The notes: a model not told the origin generated them from the sequence alone. A stretch of DNA of 64,000 bases from a candidate division FCPU426 bacterium (GCA_963719085.1 CAVRAL010000004.1:1088001-1152000), one strand, 5' to 3'; positions 2,672 to 23,119 are shown, numbered from the stretch's first letter. Numbers and translations are program-made.

Positions 2672-2805
2672 TATTCCATGGCTTCATCGTTAAATAGCTT
2701 TGATTTCAGGGCTCAAAACGTTTCCAAGTTGCAGGAGCCTAGGGCGGCTGATACAATGCCGGGGCTCTGCGTTAAATAGAAAATTTCAATCATCGGGACT
2801 TGGAA

Positions 2806-3564
2806 ATGCGTGTTTTTTTATGGATTTTAGGCATTCTTGCGGCCTTGGCCCTGATCTACGTTCTGTTTGTTGGATTGGGATTAAGCCATATTTTTAAATC
2901 CCATAAACAACTCAAAAAAATCCAAGTTTTGAATGATTTTGAATATCCGGACACCGATTTGGATTGGACCACGGGCGGTTATGTGACCTTGGAAAGTTCC
3001 ACCGAGAACCAAACCCACGGAAAACGGTCCCTGGAAGCCACCTACTTACTCCCGTCGGAATTCATGACAATGCCGACCCCGATGCCCACGGCCGTGCCGC
3101 CTCCAGTGGCCGCTTCGAATCCCAGCGGCAAAACCAAAAAGAAAGCCCTGTCCGCGCCGACACCCACACCTGAGGAGGACTTGGAACCCACCGCCACACC
3201 CGTGAATTGGCTGCCCACGATTACCTTAAGCACGGATTCAGTGACCAAAATCCCGCTTTATGATTGGACTGGATTTACCACCCTAAATATTGACGCTTTC
3301 AATCCCCAGGATAAGCCGGTGACCTATCATTTGGCCGTGGCCGATGGCAGGTCCTTTCAATACGAGACTTCCGGTGAGTTGACCCCGAAGAAAGTCACCA
3401 ATGTGTCGGTGAACTTGAGTGATCTGCTTCAAGCCCGGTTGGACTTGTCCGCGATTAGGTCCTTGAGCTTGGCGGTGGATACCCAAGGCAACAGCCTGCC
3501 GGTTCAAGTTTATTGGGATTACCTGCGCCTGGAAGAAGTGCTTCAGCCCCCCGCCAAGAAATAA
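2806..3564 (+). CDS. Membrane-anchored protein with carbohydrate-binding-like beta-sandwich and Pro/Thr-rich insert
   Basis: N-terminal TM; LNDFE, THGKRSL, DWTGFTTLNIDAFNP and VYWDYLRLE resemble galactose-binding-like/CBM folds; PTPMPT...PTPTP insert. Confidence 0.55.
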   Translation: MRVFLWILGILAALALIYVLFVGLGLSHIFKSHKQLKKIQVLNDFEYPDTDLDWTTGGYVTLESSTENQTHGKRSLEATYLLPSEFMTMPTPMPTAVPPPVAASNPSGKTKKKALSAPTPTPEEDLEPTATPVNWLPTITLSTDSVTKIPLYDWTGFTTLNIDAFNPQDKPVTYHLAVADGRSFQYETSGELTPKKVTNVSVNLSDLLQARLDLSAIRSLSLAVDTQGNSLPVQVYWDYLRLEEVLQPPAKK

Positions 3565-3730: not shown

Positions 3731-5215
3731 TTAGAGAAAAAAAGTTCCCGAAAGCTCAAACCCGTTTTGGCTGGTGTCCGGGCTGGAAGCGTCGTTTAAA
3801 GGGAATACCTCGCCCAAAAGAAGTTTGGCGTCTAATAAAAGATTGTCTTCCCTTAAGCCCACTCCGCCGACTACGCTGGACGTCAGTGTTTGAAGGCGGG
3901 CGCCAAAACGTTCCTCGTCAATCTCGTTTAATATCCCGATGCGGATCGCCCACTCGGGGGCGATCCATTTTTCCCCGCCAAGGGCGATTTGGTAGCTGTC
4001 CAAATTTGGATCCGCTTGGCCGTCGGCGCCGGAATCCTGCGGATTGAAAGACCCGCCCAAATTATTTTGGGACCGAAACTGCAGGCCCACCAGGTAGTCT
4101 TCGGGCGCTTCTAAGCCAACTCCAACGGCGGTTTGAATCTGTTGATATTGGTCCGTTTCTAAAGGGGCCCCGCCGGGTTGAAATAATTTTTCGGTTAAAA
4201 ACCCGCAGGTCGCGGCCGCGCCTATTTTTAAATCCACGTCGCTTAAATGAATCCTTATTTTCGCCGCTCCCGTGAAGGTCGCGCCTTCGTCGTTCGATAA
4301 AAGATAATCCGGCTGGGTCTGGAAATCCGGGGACGAGGAAGGGACGGTTTGCGCGAAGCGAGTTTGCAGGCCGCTGGAGGAGGCGCTGAAACGAAGTTGA
4401 AGCGATTGGGGAATTTCGTAATAAACCTCGGCGGTTCCACTCGCTTGGCTGAGATGGTAAAGCCGTTGAAGCGGAAAAGGGCTTTGGCTGGGATAAAAAA
4501 CCGAAAGCGTTTGGGTTTGAGTATCGGGAGCCAGGTCCGTCTCAAAAAAACCGCCTAACTGCCAATGGGGGGAGAGCGGGGAATCGCCTTCAACCCCATG
4601 CGCCACGATCCCGGTTTTGAGCGTCCATTGGTTTTCGTTTGTGGTGCCGGATAAAACATTCACATCATTGTTAAAAGCCCCGGGCGCGAAAGTTTGATCG
4701 ATTTGCTGATCGCTGGTTTCAACTCCGAAGGCCAAGGCTCCCCAGTTCACCGCGGTTCGAAAAAGGCCAAAAGCGTCCGCCTGGTTGTATTGGTCGAGCT
4801 GCGAAAAAGCGGGTTGGTCGCGGGGATTGTCCAGGCCGCCCGTCGCTTGAACCGCCCATTGGGGGCTTAAAAAACCAAGCCAGCCTTGGTAACCGATATC
4901 CTTATTTTTCGTCCGGGGAAAGGTGCTCAGGATTTGTTCTTGACGGCCGCCATTCAAGGCGGGCGGCGGAAAAGGCGAATCAGCCCACTGGCCCGAAAGG
5001 TCCAGGCGGTTTTGGGGGGGTAAAAGGACCAAAGCGGCGGGGTTTCCATCCAAAAACAGGTTTAAATCGGCGGTTTCATCCGTGACGATAGTGGTCAAGC
5101 CCCCCATGGCGTCCACCCGGGTTTCGGAAGCGCCGCCGCGGGAGGGCGCGGCGAAGCCACAGGCCATCGAGAGGAAGACACTGATAACCCATAGGACCGC
5201 GCGGGGGTGTTTCAT
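3731..5215 (-). CDS. Outer-membrane beta-barrel, FadL/PorV-like N-terminal motif
   Basis: Signal peptide; RVDAMGG...DET...NPAAL resembles the RxxAMGG..ADD..NPAGL motif; amphipathic strands; ends GFELSGTFFL. Confidence 0.6.
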   Translation of the reverse strand: MKHPRAVLWVISVFLSMACGFAAPSRGGASETRVDAMGGLTTIVTDETADLNLFLDGNPAALVLLPPQNRLDLSGQWADSPFPPPALNGGRQEQILSTFPRTKNKDIGYQGWLGFLSPQWAVQATGGLDNPRDQPAFSQLDQYNQADAFGLFRTAVNWGALAFGVETSDQQIDQTFAPGAFNNDVNVLSGTTNENQWTLKTGIVAHGVEGDSPLSPHWQLGGFFETDLAPDTQTQTLSVFYPSQSPFPLQRLYHLSQASGTAEVYYEIPQSLQLRFSASSSGLQTRFAQTVPSSSPDFQTQPDYLLSNDEGATFTGAAKIRIHLSDVDLKIGAAATCGFLTEKLFQPGGAPLETDQYQQIQTAVGVGLEAPEDYLVGLQFRSQNNLGGSFNPQDSGADGQADPNLDSYQIALGGEKWIAPEWAIRIGILNEIDEERFGARLQTLTSSVVGGVGLREDNLLLDAKLLLGEVFPLNDASSPDTSQNGFELSGTFFL

Positions 5216-5468
5216 GGCAGGCTCCCAAAAATCCGGATGTCGGGCGGAAGTATAGCAGACCGGATGCTGGTTGCTCCCGCCCAAAAATCGGTTAAAATAT
5301 TTGAAAAGGCCTTAAGCGGTTGAACCCCGGATGATGGGGCCTTAATTCCAGTCGCGATTATTTTGGACTGCCTCCCAAAATCCGCGTGTATCAATATTGA
5401 GAATCCAAAGCCGATAACCCAGAACCCGTCCCCGGCGGGTTTTCTGTTGAGCGCATTTGAAGGAACCC

Positions 5469-8400
5469 ATGAAGACCAACACGCTGAAGCCCGTTCAAAC
5501 CGGGGACATCATTGAAGTGGAAATCCAATCGCTCGCCTTCGGCGGGGATTCGGTGAGCCGTTATGAAGGCTTCGCTCTTTTCGTGCGCGGCGGTTTGCCC
5601 GGCGAGCGGGTGAAGATCAAAATCACCCAGGTGAAGGACCATTACGCCACGGGTGAGATCGTGGAGATCCAGCGTTTTTCCCCCGACCGCGTGGCCCCGC
5701 CTTGTCCCATTTTCGAGGAGTGCGGCGGCTGTCAGTGGCAGCACCTTAATTATCCCAAACAGCTCCAGACCAAGCGCCAATTCGTGGTCGACGCTTTACA
5801 GCGCATCGCCAAGATGGACTCCGTCTTGGTCCAACCCTGCCTGCCTTCGGAATCTTCCTACGCCTACCGAAACAAGGCCATGCCGGTTTTATCCATGCGG
5901 GACGGCCATTTCATCTCGGGCATTTACGAACCCCGCTCCCACAAACTGGTGCCTTACCAGAATTGCCCCATCCAAGGCGACGCGATCAATGACCTCATCC
6001 AAAAGGCGCTCAAAAAAATAGACCTGGCGGGTTTAACGCCTTACCAGGAAAAAAAGCATTATGGGTTTTTGAGGCATTTGGCCGTGCGCCAGGGCGTGGG
6101 GACGGGCGAGCTTTTGCTGGCCTTCGTGACCCGCACCCAAATGCCGGAAGAGCGCCTGCATAAAACGACTTTGCTTCCGGAACCCTTGGCTGAAATTTTG
6201 CCCCGGGTAGCCAAAGAGCTGATGGAGGAGATCCCGGGTTTGGTGGGGGTTTTGCAAAACATCAATCCTTCCCGCACCAACATTGTTTTTGGATCCTCGA
6301 CGGAAGTTTTGGCGGGCCGGGATTATTACTTTGAGAAATTCGACGGGCTGACCCTGAAGGTTTCCCTGAAATCCTTCCTGCAGGTCAACACGCCGCAGGC
6401 TCAGGTGCTGCATACCATCGTGCGGGAGGCGCTCGGGGAGCCCGAGGGCCGTAAAAAATGGGGAACGGTTCTTGATCTTTATTCCGGCATCGGCACCCTG
6501 GCCATGGCCGTGGCGGATCGGGCCGATTATGTGGTCGGAGCCGAGGAAGTCGCCCCGGCGGTCGAGGACGCCCGTCAAAACGCCGAATTGAACCGCAAAA
6601 CAAACATCGATTATCTGGAAGGGGATGTGGCGGACCTTCTTTTGAAATTGAAGGCCCAAGGTCTCTCGCAAATTGACGCGGCCATCATGGACCCCCCGCG
6701 AAAAGGGGTTTTGCCTGAAGTGTTATCCCGCTTGACGGCGTTGAAGCCTGAACGCCTGGTTTATGTTTCCTGCGACCCCACGACTTTGGCCCGGGACTTG
6801 GCGCTTTTAATGAAGCACGGCTACAGTGTGGATTGGGCCCAGCCCCTGGATATGTTTCCCCAAACCTATCACGTGGAAACCGTCGTCCGGCTGACCCGGG
6901 AAAAACCTTTGTCGCCCGAGGAAGCCGCGCCGGCCAAACCGGAGCTGGAGCCTTTCCGCCTTCCCAAGATGGCCCGGGTCAGCTTGAACATATCGGCTTT
7001 GGGTCAAAAGATTCAGTTTGGGGTCGCCGCGGCGCAAACCGCCCTTTCGGGCCTGTTCCAAAAGAAGGATTCCATTCACTGGCCTTTAGCGGATCCGGCG
7101 AAGCTTGTGGTTGAAAAAGAGGCGCTTGAGACGGTTTCGGTGGAAGCGGCGAACGAAGAGCTGACGTTGGAATCCAGCCTGGAAGTTTCCGAGAAAGACG
7201 CCTTGGCCGAGCCGCTGCCCTCCCAGGCGCGGCCGGAGCGCCAGTTCCCGAATCAATGGATCGCCCTGCTTCGGCAAGGGACCCGGAATTTCCCCTGGAG
7301 TCCCCGGACGATCGGCATCGCTTTGCTTCTTTTATTCATCCTCGCCGGAGGCAGCTACTTCGCGGTGGCGGATTTGGCGCCCCTAATCGCCCGGTCCCCC
7401 TTCCAAGTGGCGACTACGCCGCAATTTATCCCCGATACCATCGCCATCATGCCCACGCGGAATTTTTTGAGGTATGAAATGGTGCCTTTTGAGGTGCGCA
7501 TCCATCCGGAGGACATGCCGCATTTTTCGGCCATGCACGCCGTGGTGGAGGTTTTTCATGACGGACAACCCGTGGCTATGGTGGATGGAAAAACGAAACT
7601 GTACCTAAAAAAAGACCCGGCGAACGCCCGTTTCATCGGCAATTGGCCCATTCCTTATAATCCCGAACCCGGCACCTACACCGCCCAAATCGCCTTGACC
7701 GGACCCCAGTGGCCCGACCCCAAAGGTTTCGAGTCCGCCTTTACCATTTCGCCTTTGAAGCCCTCGGGACTTTATCCGGGATACTCCGCGCTCACGATGG
7801 AAGGCGGCAAGCATCTATTCAACGGGGTGGTTCCGCCCGTGGATGGAAAGGGCCCGGATAGCCTGGCCAACGCGATGGGGTGGGTTAAATTCATGGGCGC
7901 TAACACCTATTGTTTTCTCGCCGGGCAGACCTCGGTTTGGGATAAGTTGAACCTGAAAGATTTTCCCTTTAACCGCGGAGACGTGGAGCTGGCCCATCGT
8001 TACGGCGCGGCGGCCCATGACGCGGGATTGAAGTTCGCGGCTTACATGACCACCTTCCGGGTGGTGGGCGATGGATGGCAGCAGGCCCAAGGCCATTATC
8101 AGTTCACCATGGGCTATGACGCGGATTCGGACCAAGTAGTCCCCACCGATTTTATTTCGCTTGAGGATCCCAACCGGCGGCAGGACATCGTGGGCTTATT
8201 GAAGGAGCTGGATAAAGACCCGAACATCGACATGATTGGCCTGGATTATGTCCGCACCGGAACGGGCGGCTATGAAATGGTCGATGAGTTCGTGCGCGAT
8301 TTGAACGTGCCGGGCCCGGCGGATTATTGGTCCATGTCCAAGGATGAGCGCATCCATTGGCTGGCCCGAACGGTGGCGCTCAAAGAAAACAAGGATGTGG

Positions 8401-9302
8401 TGGCGCTTTTTGAGTGGTGGCGCGCGCACAAGGTGGCGATGACCTTGAAGGCGCTGCTCGATCAAGCCAAGCTCAGCAAACCCGTTTTCACTTTCACCTT
8501 GGGCTGGGACATGGGACATGAGCATGGGCAAGATCCGGCCATGTTTGAGGACGCCGGAGTTAATTTTAACCACATCATGCTTTATCAAAGCGACCGAAAA
8601 ACGATTGAGCAAATGAACCTGCAATGGCCGGCTTATATTTCCCGCAGCAACGGCATGTACGCGCTGGGCGAGATGGTGGATGAGAATTGGGTTCAGGACT
8701 CCATCAACCCTCCGGGCCCGGAAGAGCTTTATAACCGGGAAGCGGAAACCTTCCAGAGCTGGCAGCCCGTCAACGCCGGGATCGGCATGTTTTGGCACGA
8801 CCTCTACCGTTTGATTTACGGCCAGAAGGGTCCCTATAGCGCCATGGAATGGGCGGTGGCCGGCGGCAAGGCGTTCTCCTTATTACAGCGAACCGAAGGC
8901 GTTTTGCCTTTGGAAATAGAGCTGACGATCCCGAAAGAAGCCCCGGCGGGGGTTCCGATTCCCATCAGCGTGATGATTCACAACTCATCCATTAACCCGA
9001 TGACCGGCATCGTGCTGCACCAGGTGGATACCTCCAAAGAATATTTCACCGACTTGGCCACCGTGGGCCCCTTTGACATTCCGGCGGGGGACATGGTCCG
9101 GGTCAAGGACCTTTATGTAACCCTTCCCAAAGAACCCCACCCGGAAAGGGACGACCGTTACATGGCGGCGGTGCTCGCGGAAAAACCCGGACAATCCTTA
9201 AGGGCCTTTGATTTCGCCTATGTGAAGGCTTTGCCGCCGGGGACGGCGATCAAGGCTACTGACATGCCAAAACCCGACGATGTCAAATCGGCGAACGAAT
9301 AA
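5469..9302 (+). CDS. rlmD: 23S rRNA m5U methyltransferase RlmD fused to TM helix and extracytoplasmic glycoside-hydrolase-like domain
   Basis: TRAM domain, CPIFEECGGC Fe-S motif, SFLQVN, DLYSGIG, DPPRKG, YVSCDPTTLARD, DMFPQTYHVE; then linker, TM (~7308-7370) and a ~640-aa domain containing DMIGLDYVR. Confidence 0.85.
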   Translation: MKTNTLKPVQTGDIIEVEIQSLAFGGDSVSRYEGFALFVRGGLPGERVKIKITQVKDHYATGEIVEIQRFSPDRVAPPCPIFEECGGCQWQHLNYPKQLQTKRQFVVDALQRIAKMDSVLVQPCLPSESSYAYRNKAMPVLSMRDGHFISGIYEPRSHKLVPYQNCPIQGDAINDLIQKALKKIDLAGLTPYQEKKHYGFLRHLAVRQGVGTGELLLAFVTRTQMPEERLHKTTLLPEPLAEILPRVAKELMEEIPGLVGVLQNINPSRTNIVFGSSTEVLAGRDYYFEKFDGLTLKVSLKSFLQVNTPQAQVLHTIVREALGEPEGRKKWGTVLDLYSGIGTLAMAVADRADYVVGAEEVAPAVEDARQNAELNRKTNIDYLEGDVADLLLKLKAQGLSQIDAAIMDPPRKGVLPEVLSRLTALKPERLVYVSCDPTTLARDLALLMKHGYSVDWAQPLDMFPQTYHVETVVRLTREKPLSPEEAAPAKPELEPFRLPKMARVSLNISALGQKIQFGVAAAQTALSGLFQKKDSIHWPLADPAKLVVEKEALETVSVEAANEELTLESSLEVSEKDALAEPLPSQARPERQFPNQWIALLRQGTRNFPWSPRTIGIALLLLFILAGGSYFAVADLAPLIARSPFQVATTPQFIPDTIAIMPTRNFLRYEMVPFEVRIHPEDMPHFSAMHAVVEVFHDGQPVAMVDGKTKLYLKKDPANARFIGNWPIPYNPEPGTYTAQIALTGPQWPDPKGFESAFTISPLKPSGLYPGYSALTMEGGKHLFNGVVPPVDGKGPDSLANAMGWVKFMGANTYCFLAGQTSVWDKLNLKDFPFNRGDVELAHRYGAAAHDAGLKFAAYMTTFRVVGDGWQQAQGHYQFTMGYDADSDQVVPTDFISLEDPNRRQDIVGLLKELDKDPNIDMIGLDYVRTGTGGYEMVDEFVRDLNVPGPADYWSMSKDERIHWLARTVALKENKDVVALFEWWRAHKVAMTLKALLDQAKLSKPVFTFTLGWDMGHEHGQDPAMFEDAGVNFNHIMLYQSDRKTIEQMNLQWPAYISRSNGMYALGEMVDENWVQDSINPPGPEELYNREAETFQSWQPVNAGIGMFWHDLYRLIYGQKGPYSAMEWAVAGGKAFSLLQRTEGVLPLEIELTIPKEAPAGVPIPISVMIHNSSINPMTGIVLHQVDTSKEYFTDLATVGPFDIPAGDMVRVKDLYVTLPKEPHPERDDRYMAAVLAEKPGQSLRAFDFAYVKALPPGTAIKATDMPKPDDVKSANE

Positions 9303-9465
9303 AACCATTCCTTTAGTTTATTGTGAAAATAAAAAGAGAAGGCCGTTTCGGACGCTTTTGACCGCCCGGCAGAGGCCCTTAAAACTGTTTTTTTAGCACC
9401 CCGGCAACCGTTTTTAGTACAATGACCGGCGCTTTGTCTCATGAATTCCTCATTGAGGGGTGGGT

Positions 9466-10233
9466 ATGGCCTCGTCCAAGTGGTTCTTGATCCTCGTGGG
9501 GACCCTGGGGATTTCTTTTTTAACCGGTTGCGGGGCGATTTTCATCAACGAAGGTTCCAAAGAATATTCCCGAACCGATAACCTTCAAAACCCCGACGAG
9601 AACAAACCCAAGGTCGTTGTGCCGGCCGAGCAGTGCCGGATCAGCGATTTCCAAGATTCCAGCACCGATGTTAACTCCAAGCTTTTTGGCGCCAGCGGCG
9701 GCACTTGGATCGCTTTTTCTTTCGGCGGCAACACGGTGAACAGCCCCTTTTTGGTGCCGGGCGGGGCGAATGGCGACAAGATGGCGGCGCATATCTATGG
9801 AACCTTAACGGACAAGGGAGACGCCTCTTATCCCTCTTTCACGCTTTCGTGCCAATTCACCCAAAGCGGTTTATATGACGCGTCCAACTTTACCGGGATC
9901 AAGTTCTACTATAAATGCCCGTCGAAGGACCAATCGTTGAAACGCCGGTTGGCCTTGGGGACGTCCCCCACCTTGCCGGCCTCCGCGGGCGGCAATTGCG
10001 CGGCGAATTGTTTTGACCATTTTGGAACCACGCTTCATTCTTCCGAGGATTGGGCGGTTTACAACTTGAAGTTCACCGATTTGACCCGGGAAGGCTGGGG
10101 CGCGCCGGTCACGCCGCCGGATTTGATTGATCATTTGAAAGAATTCATCAATTTATCATGGAACAACAGCGCCAATAACACGGCGGGAAGTTATCCGATT
10201 GACTTCTGGGTGGATGACGTCGAGTTTTTCTAA
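9466..10233 (+). CDS. Lipoprotein with CBM11/CIA30-like domain (paralog 1)
   Basis: Lipobox FLTG-C; YDASNFTGIKFY, GGNC..NCFDHFG, C-terminal DFWVDDVEFF. Confidence 0.75.
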   Translation: MASSKWFLILVGTLGISFLTGCGAIFINEGSKEYSRTDNLQNPDENKPKVVVPAEQCRISDFQDSSTDVNSKLFGASGGTWIAFSFGGNTVNSPFLVPGGANGDKMAAHIYGTLTDKGDASYPSFTLSCQFTQSGLYDASNFTGIKFYYKCPSKDQSLKRRLALGTSPTLPASAGGNCAANCFDHFGTTLHSSEDWAVYNLKFTDLTREGWGAPVTPPDLIDHLKEFINLSWNNSANNTAGSYPIDFWVDDVEFF

Positions 10234-10285
10234 AAAGTTTCGAACCGTTTAAACGACGGGACTAATTGTCAAACGAGAGGTTTTT

Positions 10286-12826
10286 TTGACTTTTCGCTTT
10301 CAAAACCTATTGACGGCCTTTTTCGTCCTTGTTTTTGGGGGGGCGATCGTTTCCGGGGCCTTCGCCGATCCTTTCGCCGATGTCACGGCGGATCAAAGTC
10401 TTTACCAACGGGTAAAAAAGTTGGGGGACGATGGTTTGCTGGATGCTCAAGACCGGGCGGTGTTGGATCAAGGCAAGGTCGTGAGCCGGCTGGAACTGGC
10501 TTTCTATACGGAAAAGGCCAAGGCCCGCATTGAAGCGCCTGAGCTGGCCCAGCCGGCGATCGCCACACCCACGCCGCAAGCCTTGCCGTCTCCCGTGATT
10601 TTGGCGCCCACGGCCGTGCCGACCGCCGCTCCGCCTTCCATTTATCCGTCGGCGGACAAGCAAGAAATTGAGGAACTGCTGAAAGAATTCCGCACCGAAT
10701 CCGTGCTTCTCAAGAGCCGTTTGAGCCTGGATGACACGCGCATCAAGGAACAAGAGGATGAATTGGACAAGCTCAAGACGGTCCAAGACGAAGTGGACGA
10801 GATTTGGAAGAAAGCCAATAAGTCCTCGGGAATCCCCAACCTTTACACCAACATCAATATGCGGGTGGAAAATATCAGCCTGTCGGGCCCGCTGACCCAG
10901 GAAAACGCCACCCGAATCCTTCAAGAAATTTACGTCGGAACCTACTCCGACCTGGGGGGCAAGGGCACCCTTTCGGCCGGCTTGGGAGCGCTGATTCCGG
11001 TGGATGGCGCCAACGCCTCTTACCAGCTTTTGGGCGTGGGAACGCAGCCGGTCTCGCTTTATATCGGGAATCCCAGCGTCACTTTCTTTAACTACGGGGA
11101 CCTGGGCCGGTGGGACACCACCTTCGCCGTGGAAACCTACCAGCCCGACACCAGCTTCGGGGCTTTCAGCCGCGGCTACGCCAATTACGCCATCAAGCGG
11201 TTTGAGGATCCTTTCGACATTAAAAATTTCAATGACGATAAAGACGCCAAAAACTGGGACGATTACATGAATCAGGTCAGCTATATCCCGGCCTATTCCA
11301 TGTCCGCGGGGAACGTGCAATCGGCGAACGACCGCGTGTTTGACGGCATGTACCTGGCGGGGAAGCAGGTTCCGTGGCTGGGTCCGGACGGGCGCATGTG
11401 GGTATTGGTGGGCCGCATGGGGACCAGCCCTTCCCAAACCCAACGCTGGGAAGAGGGCGCCAAAATCATGGAGCCTTGGGCGAATAATTTAGTCACGACC
11501 TCCATTTCCACCGAATGGGTGAACGATAACTTCGGCGTGAACCAAGCGCCCCAGCTGGATATGAAGGATTACGAGTTGGAGTTGAAACTCAACACGCCCG
11601 TGGCCGTTGATGTGGACGCCGGATTCTCCCATTTTTCCACTGGAGTGGACATCCTCAACCCGGCGGTCACGGCCGCCAATCCGGAAGCTTTGGAAGCCGG
11701 CGCGGGGCAGGCTTCGGTGGCTTATTATCCCTTCACGCTTTACGGCTTCGCGATCAGCGATGAATACGCCGACTTCCAAAGTAAGGTCACCATGAGCGGC
11801 CTTAACTTCGCCCGCTACGGCCTTTATTTCAGCCCCTCGGACTACAACGACGCCTATGGTTCCATCGGGGAGGTGGACAATCTTCAAAGCGACCGTTACG
11901 GCTGGCGCCTCAATGTGGGATGGGACGGCCGCAAACAGGATTGGATGAAGGAATGGCCCTCCTTTTTGGATACTTTCGTCGTCAATTTCGACGTGTCGCA
12001 GAAGACCGAATTCACCTCCGAGGTCAACAACGAAGGCGTGACCTCGGGTTACAACGAGATCGAGCCGACCCAAATGTTGAGCTTTTATTATCCCGACGAC
12101 GAAGGGCTTTGGGGCTTGAACCTCTGGGGCAATTATTCCCCCAACGTGAATCCGGTCCGTCAGGACTACATCAATAATATCGAGGACATCCGAAACGACG
12201 GGGACGTGTTGAATGATGATGTGCGCTATCAGTTCCGGATGACCAATGAGAGACTGCCTCTCATCATCCCGATTTATTCAGGCCCCGGAACCATCTTGAC
12301 CGACGGCAATGGCCATAATGTTTACTACAACATCACCAATATCAAAACCTACAACTACATCACCTTGACGACCAAACTGAAGTTCGACAAATGGTTCAAC
12401 CTGCCTCGGCCCCTGGATGGTTCTTTTTACATGACCGACAACGTGGTTTCGGGTTTGGCGTCCCAGGCCAATAACGCGCCGCTTCCTGCCGGCGCGGACC
12501 CCGCCTCGAATACCGAACTTCCCATGTCGGGCGCGATCCCGAACTTGTTTGAGCAGCGGGTCTTCAGCGGCGCCTTGATGGTCAGCCTAATGGACGACGT
12601 GGACTTGATGGCCGATATGGGATTGGAAACCTGGCGCAGCGCCTATACCTACCCCCAGGTGGACTACCAAACCCATGAGTACGGGCTGGGTGTCGCTTAT
12701 GACATCCCTTGGTGCGGGGGGAAAATGGAATTGCGTTATAAGCATATCGATTTCAATGATAAGTACGTCCCGGATAATGATTATTCGGGTGATCAGTTCT
12801 TTACCAAAATTAAGTTCATGTTTTGA
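10286..12826 (+). CDS. Large outer-membrane beta-barrel with N-terminal SLH-like domain and coiled coil (OmpM-like) 1
   Basis: TTG start after GAGAGG; signal peptide AFA; FADV...LYQRVKKL..DGLL...SRLELA; Pro/Thr linker; coiled coil IEELLKEF...; ends KIKFMF. Confidence 0.7.
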   Translation: MTFRFQNLLTAFFVLVFGGAIVSGAFADPFADVTADQSLYQRVKKLGDDGLLDAQDRAVLDQGKVVSRLELAFYTEKAKARIEAPELAQPAIATPTPQALPSPVILAPTAVPTAAPPSIYPSADKQEIEELLKEFRTESVLLKSRLSLDDTRIKEQEDELDKLKTVQDEVDEIWKKANKSSGIPNLYTNINMRVENISLSGPLTQENATRILQEIYVGTYSDLGGKGTLSAGLGALIPVDGANASYQLLGVGTQPVSLYIGNPSVTFFNYGDLGRWDTTFAVETYQPDTSFGAFSRGYANYAIKRFEDPFDIKNFNDDKDAKNWDDYMNQVSYIPAYSMSAGNVQSANDRVFDGMYLAGKQVPWLGPDGRMWVLVGRMGTSPSQTQRWEEGAKIMEPWANNLVTTSISTEWVNDNFGVNQAPQLDMKDYELELKLNTPVAVDVDAGFSHFSTGVDILNPAVTAANPEALEAGAGQASVAYYPFTLYGFAISDEYADFQSKVTMSGLNFARYGLYFSPSDYNDAYGSIGEVDNLQSDRYGWRLNVGWDGRKQDWMKEWPSFLDTFVVNFDVSQKTEFTSEVNNEGVTSGYNEIEPTQMLSFYYPDDEGLWGLNLWGNYSPNVNPVRQDYINNIEDIRNDGDVLNDDVRYQFRMTNERLPLIIPIYSGPGTILTDGNGHNVYYNITNIKTYNYITLTTKLKFDKWFNLPRPLDGSFYMTDNVVSGLASQANNAPLPAGADPASNTELPMSGAIPNLFEQRVFSGALMVSLMDDVDLMADMGLETWRSAYTYPQVDYQTHEYGLGVAYDIPWCGGKMELRYKHIDFNDKYVPDNDYSGDQFFTKIKFMF

Positions 12827-12834
12827 GGATTGGG

Positions 12835-15138
12835 ATGAAATTAACGGCTTCTCAAAATTTTAAAGGCTTTGGAACGGTTCTAAGCTTCGCGCTGGGCGTC
12901 CTCAGCTTCGTCCTCGGCTGCGCCTCGCCGGCGTGGGCGGACCATGGCAAGCTCGCGTCCGCGGACCGGGACGCTTGGATCAATTGGGATGTTTCCGAAC
13001 TGGTCGCGGCGGGCCTCGTTCCCGCCCCGGAAAAACCCGTGGAGCAAATGACGAATTTAGAAGTGGCGGAGCTCACCGCCAGCGCCTCCCGGCTTTATAT
13101 GGCCCAGGCGGACGTGAATATGCTTCCCCCGCCGCTTCCGACGGATTCCCCCGCCGCTTCCGACGGTCCGGGCCTTCCCGGAGCGTTGTCGGCCGAAGGG
13201 CCGGGGGACGCCAATAAAAGCTTGGGTGACTTGGTGCAGGAGTTCCGAGGGGAACTGAGCGCCATGGGCCTGGAAGTCGACCAACTGGAAGACCGGATCA
13301 CGGATGAAAAAACCCGCAATGAGGTATTCGCCACCCTCCAAGAGGATTATTTAAAAAGAACCGGCACCGAGGTCGGAGGGTCTTCCCGCGGCTACATGTA
13401 TAACTACCGGGGGTTCGGGGCCAACAGCCTTTATGGGCCCATGGGCTATAACGCCGCCATGTATTTGGAAGTGGATTTGAAAAGCGTGCCCATTCCCTCC
13501 ATCTTGTTCGACGCGCGCTTAAGGCTTTGGCGTTCCATTGGGATGTATTACCAGGATCCCGTCCAACCGCCTTACCAACTGCGCTGGATTTCTTTGACCA
13601 GTTACAACGACTTCGGTAATTTCACCGCGGGTGATTTTTTTAAGAGCTACACGCCCTTAACCCTTTGGAGCTATGACGTGCCGCTTTATACCATGATCGA
13701 GCCGACCTCTTTCCACCGCGACCGGGTGGACACCGAGGAGTTGGTTTATATGGATCAGAGTCCCGATTGGCATTTCCGGGGTTTTGAGGCGGAGACGGGC
13801 AAGGAATGGCCGAAAGATCCCGTGTTGAGTGGATTTAAATATCAGGTCATGTCGGGTCTCATGCAGGAACCCGGATCAACCAGCGGCGGATCGGTTTTTG
13901 GAAGCTATTACCTGGGCAGCCAAGGGTCACTGGGTCTTTTCAACCACATCCTCGATTTTACCAGCACGGGGTTGGTTTTATTTAATGATCCCGAAAGCGC
14001 CAATGTGCCTTATCAGCCCAATCAACCCTCCACTTTTCCCAAGCAATACGTGATCGGCAGCGTGACCTCCAAGACCACGATTCCTTTGGGGGACAAGGCG
14101 GACTTGAGCGCTTCCATGGAAAACGCCTTCAGCCAATATGACGATGACTTGAACAATCCCCAGCGGGTGTTCAAGGACTGGGCTTTATTGGCCAATGGTT
14201 CGCTCGATGTAGAGGGCGTCCATTTTACGGCGAAGTATATGAACAACGGCCCTTATTTTTATTCGCCCGGCGCCCAGACGAACAAATACACGCCCGCCTC
14301 GGGCTCGCCGGGATATTTAAGCTCCAATTTGGGAAGCGAATTCAGCGGTTTGGACAGCGGCCTTCCGGGTTACTTGAACCAGTTCGTCTTCCAGAACGTG
14401 AACCGGCCCTTCTTCGCGCCTTACGACCGTTTATCCGAAAACTTTTTGCCCTATGGCGATGCCTCCCCGAACCGGGAAGGCCTGGTGCTGGGTTTCTCGG
14501 CTGAGATCGGGGAGAAGGGCTGGCTCAAGCCCCAAGCTTCCTATGTGGTGACCGGGCAAGAAATTCAACCCAACCTGGTTTTGAACGGGGCGGGGACCGC
14601 GGCCATCCCGGTGGACAGCCAAACCAACACCACCACGCCCCGGGTTTTCGGGGGATACGAAGGCGCCCTATCGATGGATCTGGCCAAGGCTTTTGATCTG
14701 AACAATCAAACTTACGATGTCCAAGTGGACTATAAACACCAAACCGATGACTTGGGGCTTGGCGGGGTCAGTCCCTTTACCGTGAACACGCTTATTTTGG
14801 CGGGCGACTTTAATATTCCGGTCCACTTCCTGTCGACGGTGGTTTGGTCGCTGGCCTTTGAGCGCGCCCAAGCCAGCGGCAGTGAGTACGTTTTCGGGGG
14901 GAATCCCGAGACCTGGGCGAGTTATTCGTTCTATTTAGATGATTCGGAGCTCGGCCAGTATATTTATGAGCCCCTGAATCTGACCCGTCAAACCCTGGCT
15001 TTTGGCGCGATGCTGCCCCTGGGGGACAAGATCGATTTCAGGGCGGACCTATTTTTAACCCGTTACAACTGGGCGGATATCCCGACCTATGACCGGCAGG
15101 ATCAAATTTGGAGATTCACTTATGAAGCGCATTTCTAA
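12835..15138 (+). CDS. Large outer-membrane beta-barrel with SLH-like domain and coiled coil (OmpM-like) 2
   Basis: Signal peptide AWA; ELVAAGLV...MTNLEVA; LVQEFRGELSAMGLEVDQLEDRI coiled coil; ends FTYEAHF. Confidence 0.7.
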   Translation: MKLTASQNFKGFGTVLSFALGVLSFVLGCASPAWADHGKLASADRDAWINWDVSELVAAGLVPAPEKPVEQMTNLEVAELTASASRLYMAQADVNMLPPPLPTDSPAASDGPGLPGALSAEGPGDANKSLGDLVQEFRGELSAMGLEVDQLEDRITDEKTRNEVFATLQEDYLKRTGTEVGGSSRGYMYNYRGFGANSLYGPMGYNAAMYLEVDLKSVPIPSILFDARLRLWRSIGMYYQDPVQPPYQLRWISLTSYNDFGNFTAGDFFKSYTPLTLWSYDVPLYTMIEPTSFHRDRVDTEELVYMDQSPDWHFRGFEAETGKEWPKDPVLSGFKYQVMSGLMQEPGSTSGGSVFGSYYLGSQGSLGLFNHILDFTSTGLVLFNDPESANVPYQPNQPSTFPKQYVIGSVTSKTTIPLGDKADLSASMENAFSQYDDDLNNPQRVFKDWALLANGSLDVEGVHFTAKYMNNGPYFYSPGAQTNKYTPASGSPGYLSSNLGSEFSGLDSGLPGYLNQFVFQNVNRPFFAPYDRLSENFLPYGDASPNREGLVLGFSAEIGEKGWLKPQASYVVTGQEIQPNLVLNGAGTAAIPVDSQTNTTTPRVFGGYEGALSMDLAKAFDLNNQTYDVQVDYKHQTDDLGLGGVSPFTVNTLILAGDFNIPVHFLSTVVWSLAFERAQASGSEYVFGGNPETWASYSFYLDDSELGQYIYEPLNLTRQTLAFGAMLPLGDKIDFRADLFLTRYNWADIPTYDRQDQIWRFTYEAHF

Positions 15139-17515: not shown

Positions 17516-18320
17516 ACAACGGTGGTTCGGCCGCGTGAGCGGCGTCGCGGGCTGCGTCGCGCTCTTGGGCGGGTTGGTTCTTCTGTTGAATTCGGGCTGT
17601 CAATCCAGCGTCCCGGGTTTCGGGAATTATGCCGCCCCCAACTCGGTGCCCAACAGCAACCGGGTGGACCAGTTCGCCACCGGAAGTATCGCCATTAATC
17701 CCAACCTTTTCGAGGACAACAACCCGCCCAGTTACGTCTTGAAAACGCCGGGTTCGGTGACCTTCGTGAATAATTTCCCGACTTACGGATCCGGCAGCGG
17801 CCAATTGGTGCCGGGCGCCGGCGCGGTCAGCCCCTACGCTTACCAAATGTCGGGCGCGGTGACGGATTTGCTCGACAACACTTTTCCGGCCTTGGATTTG
17901 GAAATTCCGATGGAAAATTACACTTATTACGACGCGAATCATTTTAGCGGCGTCAAGTTTTACCTGAAAGTGGCCGATGATGATACGGCGGCCCACCGGG
18001 TGTTCGCCATCCCCGTGGCGCAAACCGTTCCCACGGGAACCAACAACGGCACCTGCCCGGCGGGGCCCAAACGCTGCTACGATCATTTCGCGGCGGACTA
18101 CAGCGGCGGCACCGGGGGCCAATGGCTTCTTTCCAGCTACAATTTCAGCGATCTCCAACAGCTTCAATCCGGCTACGCGCCGGTGGTCCCCACCTTGACC
18201 GGGGATAACGGGGCCAACTTGAAACAGACGCTTTGGCTGCAATGGGAAGAAGGAAACAACAACAAAAAGCCGGGTCTTGCCACGATCGATGTTTATGTGG
18301 ACGATATCGAGTTTTTTTAA
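17499..18320 (+). CDS. Lipoprotein with CBM11/CIA30-like domain (paralog 2)
   Basis: Lipobox-like NSG-C; YDANHFSGVKFY, GTCP..RCYDHF, ends DVYVDDIEFF. Confidence 0.72.
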   Translation: MKSNSKQRWFGRVSGVAGCVALLGGLVLLLNSGCQSSVPGFGNYAAPNSVPNSNRVDQFATGSIAINPNLFEDNNPPSYVLKTPGSVTFVNNFPTYGSGSGQLVPGAGAVSPYAYQMSGAVTDLLDNTFPALDLEIPMENYTYYDANHFSGVKFYLKVADDDTAAHRVFAIPVAQTVPTGTNNGTCPAGPKRCYDHFAADYSGGTGGQWLLSSYNFSDLQQLQSGYAPVVPTLTGDNGANLKQTLWLQWEEGNNNKKPGLATIDVYVDDIEFF

Positions 18321-18378
18321 AACAGTGGTAATTTTAAAGCAAGGTGGCTTGGGCAGAGCCCAAGCGGGGAAAGTGGCT

Positions 18379-19146
18379 ATGAACAACAAATCAGTTTTAA
18401 TTTTGGGCTTGGCGTTATTGGGCTTGCTCCAGGGATGTACGGAGAAGCTTCCCTTATCCAATCCGAATCTTATCTTGGCCCAGCCTTTGCCCGTCACGGT
18501 GGTCTCCGACTTTGGCAACGCCTCCTTGAAGACAAACCCCACGCTTTTTGACAGTGAAAAGGGTTTCTTTTTGGATGGATCCTACGCTTATAAAACGGAC
18601 AGCGGCTTGCAGCTGACGACGCCGCTTGTCAGCGCTTCCTTTCCCGATCCCAGCAACAGCCCCTACGCCTTGCATCTTTTCGGGACCTACATCGACTATG
18701 GCAACGGCGGTTATCCGGCCTTCGAACTGGAATGCTTTCCCCGCGCCGACAGCCAATTTTACGACCTCACCTCTTTCGCCGGCCTGACCGGCATTGAGTT
18801 CGACTGGTGCACCGGACCCACGGACAACTCAAATCAATACTTTTTTTGCCTGATCACCGCCCGCATCGCTCCCCAAAGCATCGGCGGGGATGGAACCTGC
18901 GGCACCCCCGGCGCCGTGCCTTGCTACGATTACCTCGGCAATTCGCTTTTTGGGACGGGCGGGAACTGGTTCCAGCTTCAGCTGCCTTTCAGCAATATGA
19001 ACACCCAATATTCTTCGGGCAGTCCGACCAACGTCACGGCCGCGGATATGACCCATGTTCTTCAATTAATGTGGACCAACCGGTCCAACAATGTTTCGGG
19101 CAATTACACCTGCGATATGTGGTTGGATGACATCCAGTTCTATTGA
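18379..19146 (+). CDS. Lipoprotein with CBM11/CIA30-like domain (paralog 3)
   Basis: ATG 18379; lipobox LLQG-C; GTC..PCYDYLG; ends DMWLDDIQFY. Confidence 0.75.
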   Translation: MNNKSVLILGLALLGLLQGCTEKLPLSNPNLILAQPLPVTVVSDFGNASLKTNPTLFDSEKGFFLDGSYAYKTDSGLQLTTPLVSASFPDPSNSPYALHLFGTYIDYGNGGYPAFELECFPRADSQFYDLTSFAGLTGIEFDWCTGPTDNSNQYFFCLITARIAPQSIGGDGTCGTPGAVPCYDYLGNSLFGTGGNWFQLQLPFSNMNTQYSSGSPTNVTAADMTHVLQLMWTNRSNNVSGNYTCDMWLDDIQFY

Positions 19147-19169
19147 TCGCCGGTTGAACCCATTTTTTT

Positions 19170-19200
19170 AAAAGGCGCGGCTAAAAGCCGGGCCTTTTTT
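19170..19200 (+). terminator. Intrinsic terminator
   Basis: AAAAGGCGCGGCT-AAA-AGCCGGGCCTTTTTT (one mismatch). Confidence 0.75.
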
Positions 19201-19279
19201 ATTTAAACTTGGTTTTAACGGGGAACAAAACCGTATTTTTAGCCCCGGAGGTTGTGGAAGCCCAATTTTTGTCCCCGGG

Positions 19280-19288
19280 TGGTATAAT
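19280..19288 (+). promoter_or_regulatory. Extended -10 promoter element for paralog 4
   Basis: TG-G-TATAAT about 75 nt upstream of ATG 19363. Confidence 0.55.
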
Positions 19289-20303: not shown

Positions 20304-22103
20304 TTGTCGCTCGACCATATCCGTAATTTTTGCATCATCGCCCATATCGACCACGGCAAAAGCACGCTGGCGGACCGCCTTTTGGAATTCACCGGCGCCA
20401 TTCCGCCCCGGGAAATGCGCGCCCAATTGATGGACCAAATGGATCTGGAACGGGAGCGGGGCATCACCATCAAGGCCAAGGCCGTGCGTTTTTTTTATAA
20501 GGCCAAAAACGGCAAGCGCTACGAGATGAACTTGATCGATACGCCAGGCCACGTGGATTTTAACTACGAGGTTTCCCGAAGCCTCAAGGCCTGCGAGGGG
20601 GCGCTTTTATTGATCGACGCCTCCCAAGGCGTGGAAGCCCAGACCCTGGCCAACGCCTTTTTGGCCATGGATCAGAAACTCACCATTATTCCCGTCATCA
20701 ATAAAATCGACCTGCCGGCCGCGGACGTGGAGCGCTGTAAAAAACAAATGGAAGAATCACTCGCCATCGAGGGCTCGGAAGCCATCTTGGCCTCGGCCAA
20801 GGATGGTTTGGGCATCGAGGATATTTTGGAGGCGATTGTGGAGCGGGTGCCGCCGCCCCAGGGCGAGGCCGCCGACCCGGTGAAGGGCCTTATTTTTGAT
20901 TCCATGTTCGACATTTACCGCGGCGTCATCATCTTCGTGCGGCTTTTGAACGGCACCATCCAAAAGGGAACCAAGATGAAGTTCATGGCCACCGATTTGG
21001 TTTTTGAGATCGAGGAAATCGGCGTCTTCAAACCCAAGATGGAAAAAGTCGAGAAGCTTTCCGCCGGGGAAGTGGGCTACATCTGCGCCAATATCAAGGA
21101 AGTGCGCGACGCCAAGGTGGGGGACACCATTACCGAAGCCAGCCGGCCCACCGCGGAGGCCCTGCCCGGGTTTAAGGATGTGTTGCCCATGGTTTTTTGC
21201 GGGCTCTTTCCCATCGACTCCGAGGACTACGACCACCTGAAGGAATCCCTGTCCAAGCTCAAACTGTCCGACGCGGCGCTTTCGTATGAGCCCGAGACTT
21301 CCGTCGCCTTGTCTTTCGGTTTTCGCTGCGGTTTTCTGGGCCTGCTCCATATGGAAATTGTGCAGGAACGTTTGGAGCGCGAATACAACCTCAACCTGAT
21401 CGCCACGGCGCCCAGCGTCATTTATCAGGTGGTCAAAACCAACCAGGAAGAAGTTTGGGTCGACAATCCGACCAAACTGCCCGAGATCACCTCGATCCAG
21501 GAAATCCGGGAGCCCATCATTGACGCGAAAATTATCGTGCCCGCCGATTATATCGGCGCGGTCATGACCCTGTGCCAGGAGCGCCGGGGAATTCACAAAA
21601 ACACCAGCTTCCTGGATCCCACCCGGGCCCAGATCGCCTATGAGCTTCCCCTGGCCGAAGTGGTCATGGATTTTTTCGACAAACTTAAAAGCTGCACCAA
21701 GGGCTACGCGTCGCTGGATTATGAGCCCATCGGCTACCGGGCGGGCCATATCGTGAAGGTCGACATCCTGCTGAACAACGAAGTGGTGGACGCGCTGTCC
21801 TTTATGGTGCATCGGGACAAGGCCGAGGCCCGGGGGCGGGGAATCGCCGAAAAGCTAAAGGAAATTATTCCCCAGCAGCTTTTCGAGGTGCCGATTCAAG
21901 CCGCCATCGGCGGAAAAATTATCGCCCGGGAGACGGTTCGGGCCCGCCGCAAGGACGTTTTGGCCAAATGTTACGGCGGGGATATCAGCCGCAAACGGAA
22001 ACTATTGGAGAAACAAAAAGAAGGTAAGAAGCGCATGAAGAACATCGGCAGCGTCGAAATACCTCAAGAAGCCTTTATGGCCGTCTTGCAGGTAGAGGAT
22101 TAA
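20304..22103 (+). CDS. lepA: Elongation factor 4 (LepA)
   Basis: [38 protein letters not shown]-terminal [18 protein letters not shown]. Confidence 0.98.
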
Positions 22104-22112
22104 GTCGCGGCA

Positions 22113-22277
22113 ATTTTCATTGATGAACGCAGATAAACGCCGATGAGGAATAAATCTAATCGAATTATCTGCGTTCATCTGCGTTCGCGCCGCTCCTCGA
22201 AGTAAAAGTTAGGGGAGGGCGGCATTGTCCCGGGAATCCTTAACGCCAATAGGGAGTCCCGGGACATCATTGTTAAT
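22113..22277 (+). repeat. Structured intergenic repeat, family 1 copy A
   Basis: ACGCAGAT-type periodic inverted arms, ends CATCATTGTTAA, with two extra internal hairpins. Confidence 0.8.
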
Positions 22278-22306
22278 CGCTGTAAATTTTTAAATCCGGA
22301 GAAGTC

Positions 22307-23119
22307 ATGGAAAACATCGATTTTACCCAGAATTTGAATTTGATTCTTTATTTCTTGGCGGCTCTGTTGACCTTGGTGGAGCTTTTCGTGAGGGTCGTTT
22401 GGCCCAAGCTCAAACCGTCCCCGGCACCCGCGCCCGGTCTTTTGGCCGCCAGCCGGCCTGGAAGTTGGATGGAAACCGTTGACTCCCTTTGGGTGGCCAT
22501 GGTGGTGGCCCTGACCTTGAAGGCCCTTCTGGTCCAGCCCTTTACCATTCCCTCGGGCTCAATGGAAGACACGCTCCAAATCGGCGATTATCTGCTGGTG
22601 AAAAAATATGAGTACGGCTATTCGCTTTTGAATAAGACCCCCCGGTTCCTGGAGTTCAACCATCCCAAGCGCGGGGATATTTTGGTTTTTGTTTATCCGG
22701 ATGACCATACGAAAGATTTCATCAAGCGCTGTATCGGTTTGCCCGGGGACGTGATTGAGCTTAAAAACGCCGAGCTTTACCTGAACGGCGTGAAGCAGGA
22801 TGAGCCTTATGTGAAACATCTTTTCACGCCGAGGGAAATCCTCCAAGAAGAAGGGCCGGACTCGCCCAAGGTCAATTTTGGACCCGTCACGGTGGCCCCG
22901 GGCCATTACTTTATGATGGGGGACAACCGGGACAACAGTTTGGATTCCCGATACTGGGGCCAGCTGGACGAGGAACTCGTCAAGGGCCAGGCCTGGCTCA
23001 TTTATTGGCATAGCGTGAATTTTCATCCGGACTTCAGCCGGATGTTCCATTTTATCGTGAACGCGCCTTCCACCGCGGCTCCGATGGCGCCTTCGGCGGC
23101 CGCGGCTAAGAAAAAATAG
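22307..23119 (+). CDS. lepB: Signal peptidase I
   Basis: IPSGSMEDTL..GD, DFIKRCIGLPGD, GDNRDNSLDSRYWG. Confidence 0.96.
   Translation: MENIDFTQNLNLILYFLAALLTLVELFVRVVWPKLKPSPAPAPGLLAASRPGSWMETVDSLWVAMVVALTLKALLVQPFTIPSGSMEDTLQIGDYLLVKKYEYGYSLLNKTPRFLEFNHPKRGDILVFVYPDDHTKDFIKRCIGLPGDVIELKNAELYLNGVKQDEPYVKHLFTPREILQEEGPDSPKVNFGPVTVAPGHYFMMGDNRDNSLDSRYWGQLDEELVKGQAWLIYWHSVNFHPDFSRMFHFIVNAPSTAAPMAPSAAAAKKK

Follow-up and report, generated by a model that had tools for sequence, protein, structure and literature searches.

Ribosomal RNA-modifying enzymes are textbook soluble proteins, and the known methyltransferases RlmD and RlmCD are soluble enzymes of about 430–480 amino acids. RlmD (RumA in E. 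coli, 1UWV/2BH2) and RlmCD (5XJ1) are made up of TRAM, central and Rossmann domains. All three are present in the protein analyzed here, the product of a single gene in a 64,000-nucleotide stretch of DNA from a candidate division FCPU426 bacterium (GCA_963719085.1, CAVRAL010000004.1:1088001–1152000), which we call the window. Unlike RlmD and RlmCD, however, the window protein extends for 800 more residues, through a linker and a predicted export signal, into what appears to be an exported enzyme. On balance, we lean towards reading it as a precursor in which RlmD is active in the cytoplasm while an envelope glycan hydrolase is exported and probably released. Our literature search found no published description of an RlmD joined to a membrane segment or a periplasmic domain.

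Some described proteins resemble this one in layout. ToxR/CadC and RodZ are bitopic, with a cytoplasmic head of the nucleic-acid-binding class, one membrane segment and a periplasmic domain. The window protein would have the same topology if its signal stayed uncleaved, but those proteins have DNA- or cytoskeleton-binding heads and sensory periplasmic parts, whereas here an rRNA-modifying head is joined to an enzyme-like outer part. The cytochrome b/c1 precursor FbcH of Bradyrhizobium is a bacterial polyprotein split at an internal signal peptide. In the hepatitis C virus core–E1 precursor, according to the outline given in PMC5402940, signal peptidase splits the chain, and core, which at first remains membrane-anchored through the signal peptide, is later set free by signal-peptide peptidase. 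The shared layout is that of a cytoplasmic, RNA-binding N-terminal protein ending in the signal peptide of the next, exported protein. Both kinds of peptidase are encoded in the host genome of the window as well, although processing is here predicted from sequence and concerns a pair of cellular housekeeping enzymes, not a virus. A literature search on polyproteins with internal signals returned only viral papers among its 12 best-ranked results.

E. coli DigH, also named YddW, belongs to the glycoside-hydrolase-like family GHL10. DigH degrades denuded peptidoglycan glycans (PMC12288456), Cwp19 of C. difficile is a peptidoglycan-cleaving autolysin (PMC6016235), and one GHL10 enzyme has been reported to be active on starch (PMC9967864). 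As outlined in PMC5765458, the GHL10 signature of Cwp19 consists of Asp196–Tyr197 on β4, Tyr297 on β6, Gly328 on β7, where clan-A enzymes normally have Glu, and Phe367 on β8; the same outline equates Asp466 on β4 of PgaB/BpsB with Asp196 of Cwp19. The C-terminal domain of PgaB/BpsB (glycoside hydrolase family GH153; 4F9D, 6AU1) cleaves partly deacetylated poly-N-acetylglucosamine (PNAG).

The fused reading frame and its RlmD half

A single open frame was read from the window sequence at 5457–9302 on the plus strand, with its stop codon at 9300–9302. Translation probably begins at the ATG at 5469, giving a protein of 1277 residues. The first-pass annotation of this DNA, made from the sequence alone, had described a stop-free open reading frame (ORF) of ~1277 codons that holds a complete RlmD, with TRAM domain, Fe–S cysteines, S-adenosylmethionine (SAM) motif and catalytic cysteine. 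Both descriptions held up. The NCBIfam model for RlmD, TIGR00479, matched residues 24–470 with 408.8 bits against a cut-off of 183.55, covering profile positions 3–432 of 432, and Pfam placed TRAM (PF01938) at residues 9–65 (45.6 bits, cut-off 21) and tRNA_U5-meth_tr at residues 301–477. The cysteines C79-x5-C85-x2-C88 and C166 are invariant in alignments of 24 and 47 fused proteins, and the same four align with those of the standalone RlmDs of the phylum; in RumA, such cysteines are the ligands of a [4Fe-4S] cluster. The motifs LDLYSGIGT (335–343), DPPRKG (408–413), SCDP (C435) and HVE (E470) are also invariant in the fused family and aligned with the standalone RlmDs, being lost only in a lineage of family f12 described below. 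By analogy with RumA, residues 335–343 are presumably SAM motif I, DPPR motif IV, Cys435 the catalytic cysteine and Glu470 the general base. The best solved relative of this half is S. pneumoniae RlmCD (5XJ1, 245 bits), with E. coli RumA (1UWV) at 162 bits, and in a structure model of residues 1–660 the RlmD fold is confident. By sequence, then, residues 1–478 are a complete RlmD-class 23S rRNA 5-methyluridine (m5U) methyltransferase with its motifs intact; enzymes of this class methylate U1939 and/or U747 of 23S rRNA. The fused gene is the only RlmD-class match over cut-off in the host genome (3.04 Mb in 5 contigs, 99% complete).

We searched 99 genomes of the window's phylum with the C-terminal module and TIGR00479. 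The window's order, comprising families f1 and f2, is represented by 32 genomes including the host, and 27 of these have both halves in one open frame of 1243–1542 aa. In 4 of the others contig ends truncate the gene, and the last, which is 80% complete, yielded neither half. Each order genome has one strong RlmD match, the fused one, with a weak second match in G061. The first-pass annotation had proposed comparing fused and split genes in relatives, and in the other families the genes are split: 45 genomes carry the module in frames of 594–754 aa (32–40% identity), with RlmD 30–265 kb away or on another contig. RlmD is mostly found in ordinary frames of 439–551 aa in these other families; in families f3–f6 and f13 of the phylum genomes searched, RlmD was found and the module was not. 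In family f4, RlmD (L115 = G006:C35; frames in G007–G009) reaches 639–681 aa by a different extension, without the module: a C-terminal tail of ~200 aa that is rich in proline and charged residues and apparently disordered.

When 5.8 billion proteins were searched through a word index, 66 relatives came up. They are mostly 1200–1510 aa long with TRAM and U5-methyltransferase domains, and their C-terminal parts are 46–94% identical to that of the window protein. Public records name fused proteins of 1260–1460 aa simply 'RlmD'. We also surveyed 80 of 320 matched loci in species-representative genomes, which comprised 12 intact fusions, 1 diverged fusion and 67 standalone modules. No rlmD was found near the module at any of the 67 standalone loci (0/67), and rlmD was rejected as a former neighbor of the module in all sampled unfused genomes. 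Standalone members of the family also occur in metagenome-assembled genomes labeled Elusimicrobiota, Edwardsbacteria, Armatimonadota, Gemmatimonadota and others. Among the genomes examined, the fusion is confined to the window's order and the f12 lineage.

Two genes might have been merged by an assembly or sequencing error in the linker, which is of low complexity. Public low-depth soil-metagenome contigs match positions 6600–7075 and 7177–7559 with 0 differences and 0 indels. The read check that had been suggested for 6900–7400 was thus answered in part: the covered stretches are free of stops and frameshifts, but coverage is thin, and it adds little because 7076–7176 is left unbridged and because the contigs may come from the source sample. 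An artefact is nevertheless practically out of the question, because the unbroken frame recurs in the 27 independently assembled order genomes, as well as in dozens of proteins from other sources. The 99%-complete host genome has no separate RlmD, and no start backed by a Shine–Dalgarno (SD) sequence was found ahead of the hydrophobic segment. With no stop or frameshift seen and the fusion carried by relatives of the same order, the fused gene is confirmed as a genuine, conserved single ORF.

The linker and the internal signal-like segment

The linker between the two halves is about 134 residues long, close to the ~135 first proposed, and across homologues roughly 140 to 390 aa separate RlmD from the module. 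In the model of residues 1–660, residues 532–596 are predicted to be disordered, with predicted local distance difference test (pLDDT) values of 30–45. The linker is 40.8% identical to that of relatives whose RlmD is 75–78% and whose module is 62–65% identical. An EPFRLPK block near its start, with pLDDT of about 81, is kept in most fused proteins, F496 and R497 being nearly invariant, and was not found in those standalone RlmDs of the phylum whose short C-terminal tails we inspected. A predicted helix at residues 508–530 is weakly hydrophobic here but strongly hydrophobic in some homologues: P0009, P0021, P0043, P0045 and others have a strongly hydrophobic stretch of 25–37 aa ~50 residues past RlmD, which might form a membrane-associated hairpin or serve as an amphipathic anchor.

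The sole strongly hydrophobic segment of the window protein spans residues 613–640, where the model has a helix at 612–640. The first-pass annotation had placed a transmembrane helix here, at ~7308–7370; a hydrophobic segment is indeed present, but its features match a signal peptidase I substrate rather than a plain transmembrane helix. It consists of an n-region RQGTRNFPWSPRT, an h-region IGIALLLLFILA and a c-region GGSYFAVA, followed by DLAP, and signal peptidase I is predicted to cut after Ala634, between nucleotides 7370 and 7371. The cleavage site was assessed by counting the residues at −3 and −1 in the alignment of 47 fused proteins. Position −1, the Ala634 column, is Ala in 46 of the 47 proteins. 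Position −3 is Ala in 40, Gly in 4, and Ser, Thr and Val in 1 each, and 46/47 meet the −3/−1 rule. Gly occupies positions −7, −6 and −5 in 32, 38 and 28 of the proteins, respectively, Lys is found at −2 in 29, and +1 is never Pro in the listed columns. The n-region is rich in Lys and Arg (K/R at 613 in 36/47 and at 616 in 35/47), and the uninterrupted core of the h-region is about 10–12 residues long. The short h-region, the K/R-rich n-region and the Lys at −2 are better suited to the c-region of a signal peptide than to a membrane helix.

The same conclusion was suggested by the unfused relatives. All 23 standalone module frames inspected from the window's phylum carry a classical cleavable N-terminal signal peptide, which ends 12–15 aa before the conserved Y[LW]RYE[LIM]V that opens the first β-sandwich. 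More widely, an N-terminal hydrophobic segment is present in 60 of 75 complete-looking standalone family members. Because the segment of the fused protein sits at the equivalent place and has kept the features of a cleavage site, it appears to be the positional heir of the unfused signal peptide. The supposed transmembrane helix thus looks like a cleavable internal signal peptide, and the tether may be cut, as the Ala at −1 and the small residues at −3 would predict. The host genome has one gene for signal peptidase I (lepB, 22307–23119, 13 kb downstream) and one for SppA. We also considered whether translation could start internally, upstream of the signal. The only SD-like context is that of a GTG at residue 633, within the hydrophobic segment, and Met501 is unconserved among homologues; both candidates were rejected.

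The C-terminal module and its genomic setting

An AlphaFold model of the module, covering the C-terminal 641 aa and built on 74 family members, had a mean pLDDT of 93.2 and a predicted template modeling score of 0.91. It consists of a β-sandwich (residues 22–125 in module numbering), a (β/α)8 barrel (137–506) and an Ig-like β-sandwich (512–619), in agreement with the first description of ~640 aa with β-rich ends and a core containing DMIGLDYVR. In a structural search with VIA-align against 48,161 chains, the top match was Cwp19 (5OQ2, GHL10), with Z 22.4 and rmsd 3.9 over 300 residues of the 360-residue chain, followed by the hydrolase domain of BpsB (6AU1, GH153; Z 21.3 over 320 residues), β-amylase (3VOC, GH14; Z 21.1) and the hydrolase domain of PgaB (4F9D, GH153; Z 20.4 over 281 residues). 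GH35, GH29, GH42 and GH5 enzymes scored Z 17–21. The nearest named cluster in the ESM Atlas was GHL10 (0.88), then DUF4434, GH66, GHL6/DUF4015 and GHL13. A Foldseek search with the whole module was less informative than VIA-align and gave generic multi-domain glycosidases only (GH66, GH5, GH13, GH2, GH35 and GH14; template modeling scores 0.2–0.4). When a profile of the 74 members was run against PDB sequences, nothing was significant; the best match (E 0.0029) was a GH20 enzyme, in its Ig-like tail, and the lower rows were GH29 and arrestin noise.

The first-pass annotation had compared the core to GHL10/DUF4015-type barrels. The Cwp19 and ESM Atlas matches agree with this, as do sub-threshold GHL10 matches to the same profile region in 6 of 71 relatives (12.6–17.7 bits) and 1 of 33 (17.0 bits), 7 of 104 in total, the Pfam gathering threshold for GHL10 (PF02638) being 27.9 bits. 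The window module itself, however, is not a GHL10 member by Pfam's threshold, because residues 480–1277 gave no Pfam or NCBIfam match even at E ≤ 10 (797- and 643-aa queries). The GHL13/PgaB model had no match in the window protein or in the 104 relatives scanned. The Ig-like domain gave CARDB, Transglut_C and NEW3-type matches in relatives, only that of P0080 to CARDB (26.1 bits) being above cut-off. At E ≤ 0.001, the module family has 197 representatives among 1.84 billion proteins. One subclade (P0112, P0113, P0119, P0121, P0136 and P0143; 816–855 aa) has an N-terminal anchor and ~220 extra residues before the module, for which no Pfam match was found.

Sixteen positions are near-invariant in the 74 members: E778, R903, D926, Y927, R929, E936, H1019, Q1021, D1022, D1028, Y1039, G1067, D1071, F1108, H1110 and D1111. 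In the model, the polar residues of this set are located at the C-terminal ends of the barrel strands. D926–Y927, Y1039, G1067 and F1108, kept in 63–73 of 74, lie at strand ends corresponding to the D-Y on β4, Y on β6, G on β7 and F on β8 of the Cwp19 signature, a comparison of position only. By comparison with Cwp19, the module adds the N- and C-terminal β-sandwich domains, and E778, E936, H1019, D1022, D1028, D1071 and H1110–D1111 do not figure in the outline of the Cwp19 site cited above. With PgaB/BpsB, the module shares the fold and the predicted periplasmic location, but the window protein has no deacetylase domain and no pga-type neighbors were seen at the inspected loci. The annotation had left open whether the module binds or processes glycans. 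Because a near-invariant acidic and polar set is kept, processing is favored over mere binding, and from the sequence and model we read the module as a glycoside-hydrolase-like enzyme that is catalytically competent and belongs to an unnamed family, distant from GHL10. Since the characterized relatives act on peptidoglycan glycans or PNAG, its substrate is, by analogy, most likely a cell-envelope glycan, e.g., peptidoglycan strands or an exopolysaccharide.

The coordinates of all features are collected in Table 1. Where genomes of the phylum have the two halves unfused, the next gene after the module on the same strand is lepA, which starts 0–100 bp further on or overlaps the module gene, and lepB and a HemN-like gene are often nearby; lepA follows the module in 22 of the 67 standalone loci. 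In the window, the series lepA, lepB, hemN-like gene and hrcA follows the fused gene after an 11-kb insertion (9460–20148), which is kept downstream of the fused gene in G054, G043 and G068 of the same order. This insertion is the barrel/lipoprotein cluster that the annotation had placed directly downstream of the gene, and it does lie there. It encodes four paralogous lipoproteins of about 250–290 aa, with a lipobox Cys and a C-terminal motif W/Y-[VL]-DD-[VI]-[EQ]-[FL]-[FY], and three proteins of 771–846 aa ending in Phe, as outer-membrane barrels do; the proteins of the cluster had no Pfam or NCBIfam match. Two ORFs upstream, at 3731–5284 on the minus strand (517 aa) and 2800–3564 on the plus strand (254 aa), also had no Pfam or NCBIfam match. 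The 254-aa ORF adjoins the fused gene in G054, G043 and G068, the 517-aa ORF only in G068.

Elusimicrobiota-type loci (L076, L077, L078, L093, L048, L063 and others) have the module in a tight same-strand operon. The upstream genes encode a D-Tyr-tRNA deacylase, directly adjacent (14 loci), alanyl-tRNA synthetase (AlaRS; 11 loci) and a SLOG cluster4/LOG-like protein (11 loci), and the downstream genes an unnamed ORF of ~146 aa, SppA (13 loci) and a Yip1-domain protein (13 loci). The module thus habitually resides in housekeeping operons that mix genes for translation and signal-peptide processing. This setting could have a functional meaning, but it might just as well be no more than the background from which an in-frame fusion with a translation-related gene could arise. 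As a general functional clue, lepA synteny was rejected, since it is confined to the phylum.

Table 1. Features of the fused gene and its surroundings, in window coordinates.
Feature	Position	Strand	Basis or remark
Shine–Dalgarno-like GAAGGAA, upstream of ATG 5469	5459..5465	+	Direct sequence reading
Whole fused gene	5469..9302	+	1277 codons + stop; identical protein recorded as P0002
RlmD, residues 1–478	5469..6902	+	TIGR00479, Pfam, motif columns, confident model fold
Linker, residues 479–611	6903..7301	+	Alignment of homologues and model
EPFRLPK motif, residues 494–500	6948..6968	+	Alignments of fused proteins
Predicted helix, residues 508–530	6990..7058	+	Model and hydrophobicity
Internal signal-peptide-like segment, residues 602–634	7272..7370	+	Hydrophobicity, columns of 47 proteins, position relative to unfused relatives
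Predicted exported module, residues 635–1277	7371..9299	+	AlphaFold model
Module N-terminal β-sandwich, residues 658–761	7440..7751	+	Model secondary structure; weak MG2-type matches in relatives
(β/α)8 barrel, residues 773–1142	7785..8894	+	VIA-align and column counts
DMIGLDYVR, residues 921–929, strand β4 with D-Y pair	8229..8255	+	Translation and column counts
C-terminal Ig-like β-sandwich, residues 1148–1255	8910..9233	+	Model
lepA and lepB (only signal peptidase I gene of the genome)	20304..23119	+	Directly follow the module gene in unfused relatives

Decayed relatives, rival explanations and implications

The same fused layout, at 1102–1171 aa, is found in two genomes of family f12, G041 and G042, and in a diverged protein, P0070. 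The head of the G042 protein, P0077, is 25% identical to the window RlmD (E 5e-25) and scores 72.8 bits with TIGR00479, which is under the cut-off. In both f12 heads the TRAM domain and the four cysteines persist, whereas SAM motif I, DPPRKG, the SCDP cysteine and HVE are gone; the head of P0070 is more decayed. No other RlmD was found at E ≤ 1e-30 in G041 or G042 (83% and 89% complete, respectively). Between these two genomes the dead heads are 67.4% identical in amino acids over 448 codons, with proportions of nonsynonymous (pN) and synonymous (pS) differences of 0.208 and 0.744, the latter saturated; the modules are 73.6% identical, with pN 0.153. These counts indicate that the dead head is under purifying selection, which suggests that it probably does more than methylate. 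Further dead-head relatives were sought by a word-based search, which turned up the two f12 proteins and no others. In the protein collection, the two dead-head fusion proteins P0077 and P0215 carry a precomputed assignment to the Pfam family PF21579; our Pfam scan of P0077 was empty at E ≤ 0.01.

In the RlmD tree, intact heads, dead heads and family f3 together form a single clade, with a value of 91 in the Shimodaira–Hasegawa-like approximate likelihood-ratio test (SH-aLRT), the dead-head branch being 2.46 substitutions per site long. In the module tree, both fused groups lie within a clade with support of 98 that includes the phylum's standalone modules, with no resolution inside it. Placing all fused modules in one clade was not rejected by the approximately unbiased (AU) test (p 0.52), and the constrained tree was 0.55 log-likelihood units better. 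The trees are compatible with a single fusion event, which we consider probable: a module gene from a housekeeping operon would have gained rlmD in frame ahead of its signal peptide, probably once.

If the precursor is processed as we propose, its two enzymes would sit on opposite sides of the inner membrane. RlmD would fold in the cytoplasm, and residues 602–634, on leaving the ribosome, would serve as a Sec signal by which the module is threaded into the periplasm. LepB would then probably cut after the conserved Ala-x-Ala at Ala634, freeing a soluble periplasmic glycan hydrolase. RlmD itself would stay at the inner face of the membrane, held by its long disordered tail and by what is left of the signal peptide, for as long as that remnant escapes degradation.

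Several points weigh against this reading. Cleavage after Ala634 is predicted from residue columns only, and the f12 proteins have no clear Ala-x-Ala behind their hydrophobic segment. The second hydrophobic stretch of some homologues, if membrane-spanning, would alter the topology of those proteins, although the window protein does not have it. For the module, besides the failure of profile models to match it, the top VIA-align rows (Z 22.4 to 20) are effectively tied and come from families with differing substrates, Cwp19 ranking first by about 1–2 Z units over GH153, GH14 and GH35 enzymes, and the likeness to the Cwp19 active site was judged by strand position, not by superposition. The synteny with lepA is limited to the window's phylum and may merely mark the module as a housekeeping gene, the selection argument rests on two genomes and one more diverged protein, and the 'fused' group of the AU test was named after the tree was seen. 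A signal lying ~600 residues from the N-terminus could equally act as an uncleaved signal anchor, giving one bitopic protein of 140 kDa, with RlmD on a disordered leash of ~130 aa and the module on the periplasmic face. A single strongly hydrophobic helix with K/R on its N-terminal side fits such an anchor, and several standalone proteins from other phyla, P0063, P0072 and P0080 among them, have long, K/R-preceded anchors without an obvious cut site. The f12 fusions fit it as well, and selection on a dead head is easily explained if head and module remain linked. However, a plain anchor would have no need of the conserved Ala at −1, the small residue at −3, the Gly-rich helix breaker, the Lys at −2 or the short h-region, and the closest unfused relatives carry classical cleavable signal peptides at the homologous site. 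We regard a permanent anchor as unlikely, if a serious contender. Of the membrane-tethered RNA enzyme coupled to a periplasmic glycan domain that the first-pass annotation had proposed, the RlmD inside and the GHL10-like module outside, encoded in one ORF, have stood, while the conserved signal peptidase I site makes the permanence of the tether doubtful.

The fusion might also lack any functional meaning, as a tolerated accident in which a stop codon was lost between neighboring housekeeping genes. It would then be kept because each half works, and re-splitting would require a new promoter, start codon and signal. The module's place in tight same-strand housekeeping operons (Dtd in 14, AlaRS in 11, SppA in 13 and lepA in 22 of the 67 standalone loci), the poorly conserved linker of variable length and the full motif sets that both halves retain are all in keeping with this idea. 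Yet rlmD never adjoins the module in the sampled unfused genomes, being 30–265 kb away where the two share a contig. The f12 head, devoid of catalytic motifs and still 67% identical between genera with synonymous sites saturated, is not a mere spacer, and the EPFRLPK junction motif is conserved only in fused proteins. We think an accident of this kind possible but on the whole doubtful. At the other extreme, the RlmD head could be a cytoplasmic RNA- or ribosome-binding module (TRAM plus Fe–S domain) that is functionally wired to the exported hydrolase, a speculative idea to which we give little weight. It would explain the selected dead head with its cysteines, the conservation of EPFRLPK, and the position of the unfused module beside lepA/dtd/alaS and lepB/sppA. 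A head so wired might deliver the hydrolase, or time its export, at sites where ribosomes or rRNA mature, or might report ribosome synthesis or the state of its Fe–S cluster to envelope remodeling.

Whichever explanation applies, a whole order of uncultured soil bacteria makes the only RlmD found in its genomes as the head of a precursor with a tail predicted to be exported, an architecture hidden by the public label 'RlmD'. The C-terminal module represents an unnamed, scattered family of exported TIM-barrel proteins (197 representative clusters, 320 loci) and is a candidate for a new envelope glycan hydrolase. The dead but conserved head of the f12 proteins offers a natural experiment on a non-enzymatic role of an rRNA methyltransferase fold. 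If the tether persists, 23S rRNA would be methylated at the membrane; if it is cut, this would be a rare case of a cellular polyprotein being divided at an internal signal peptide, as is known above all from viruses.

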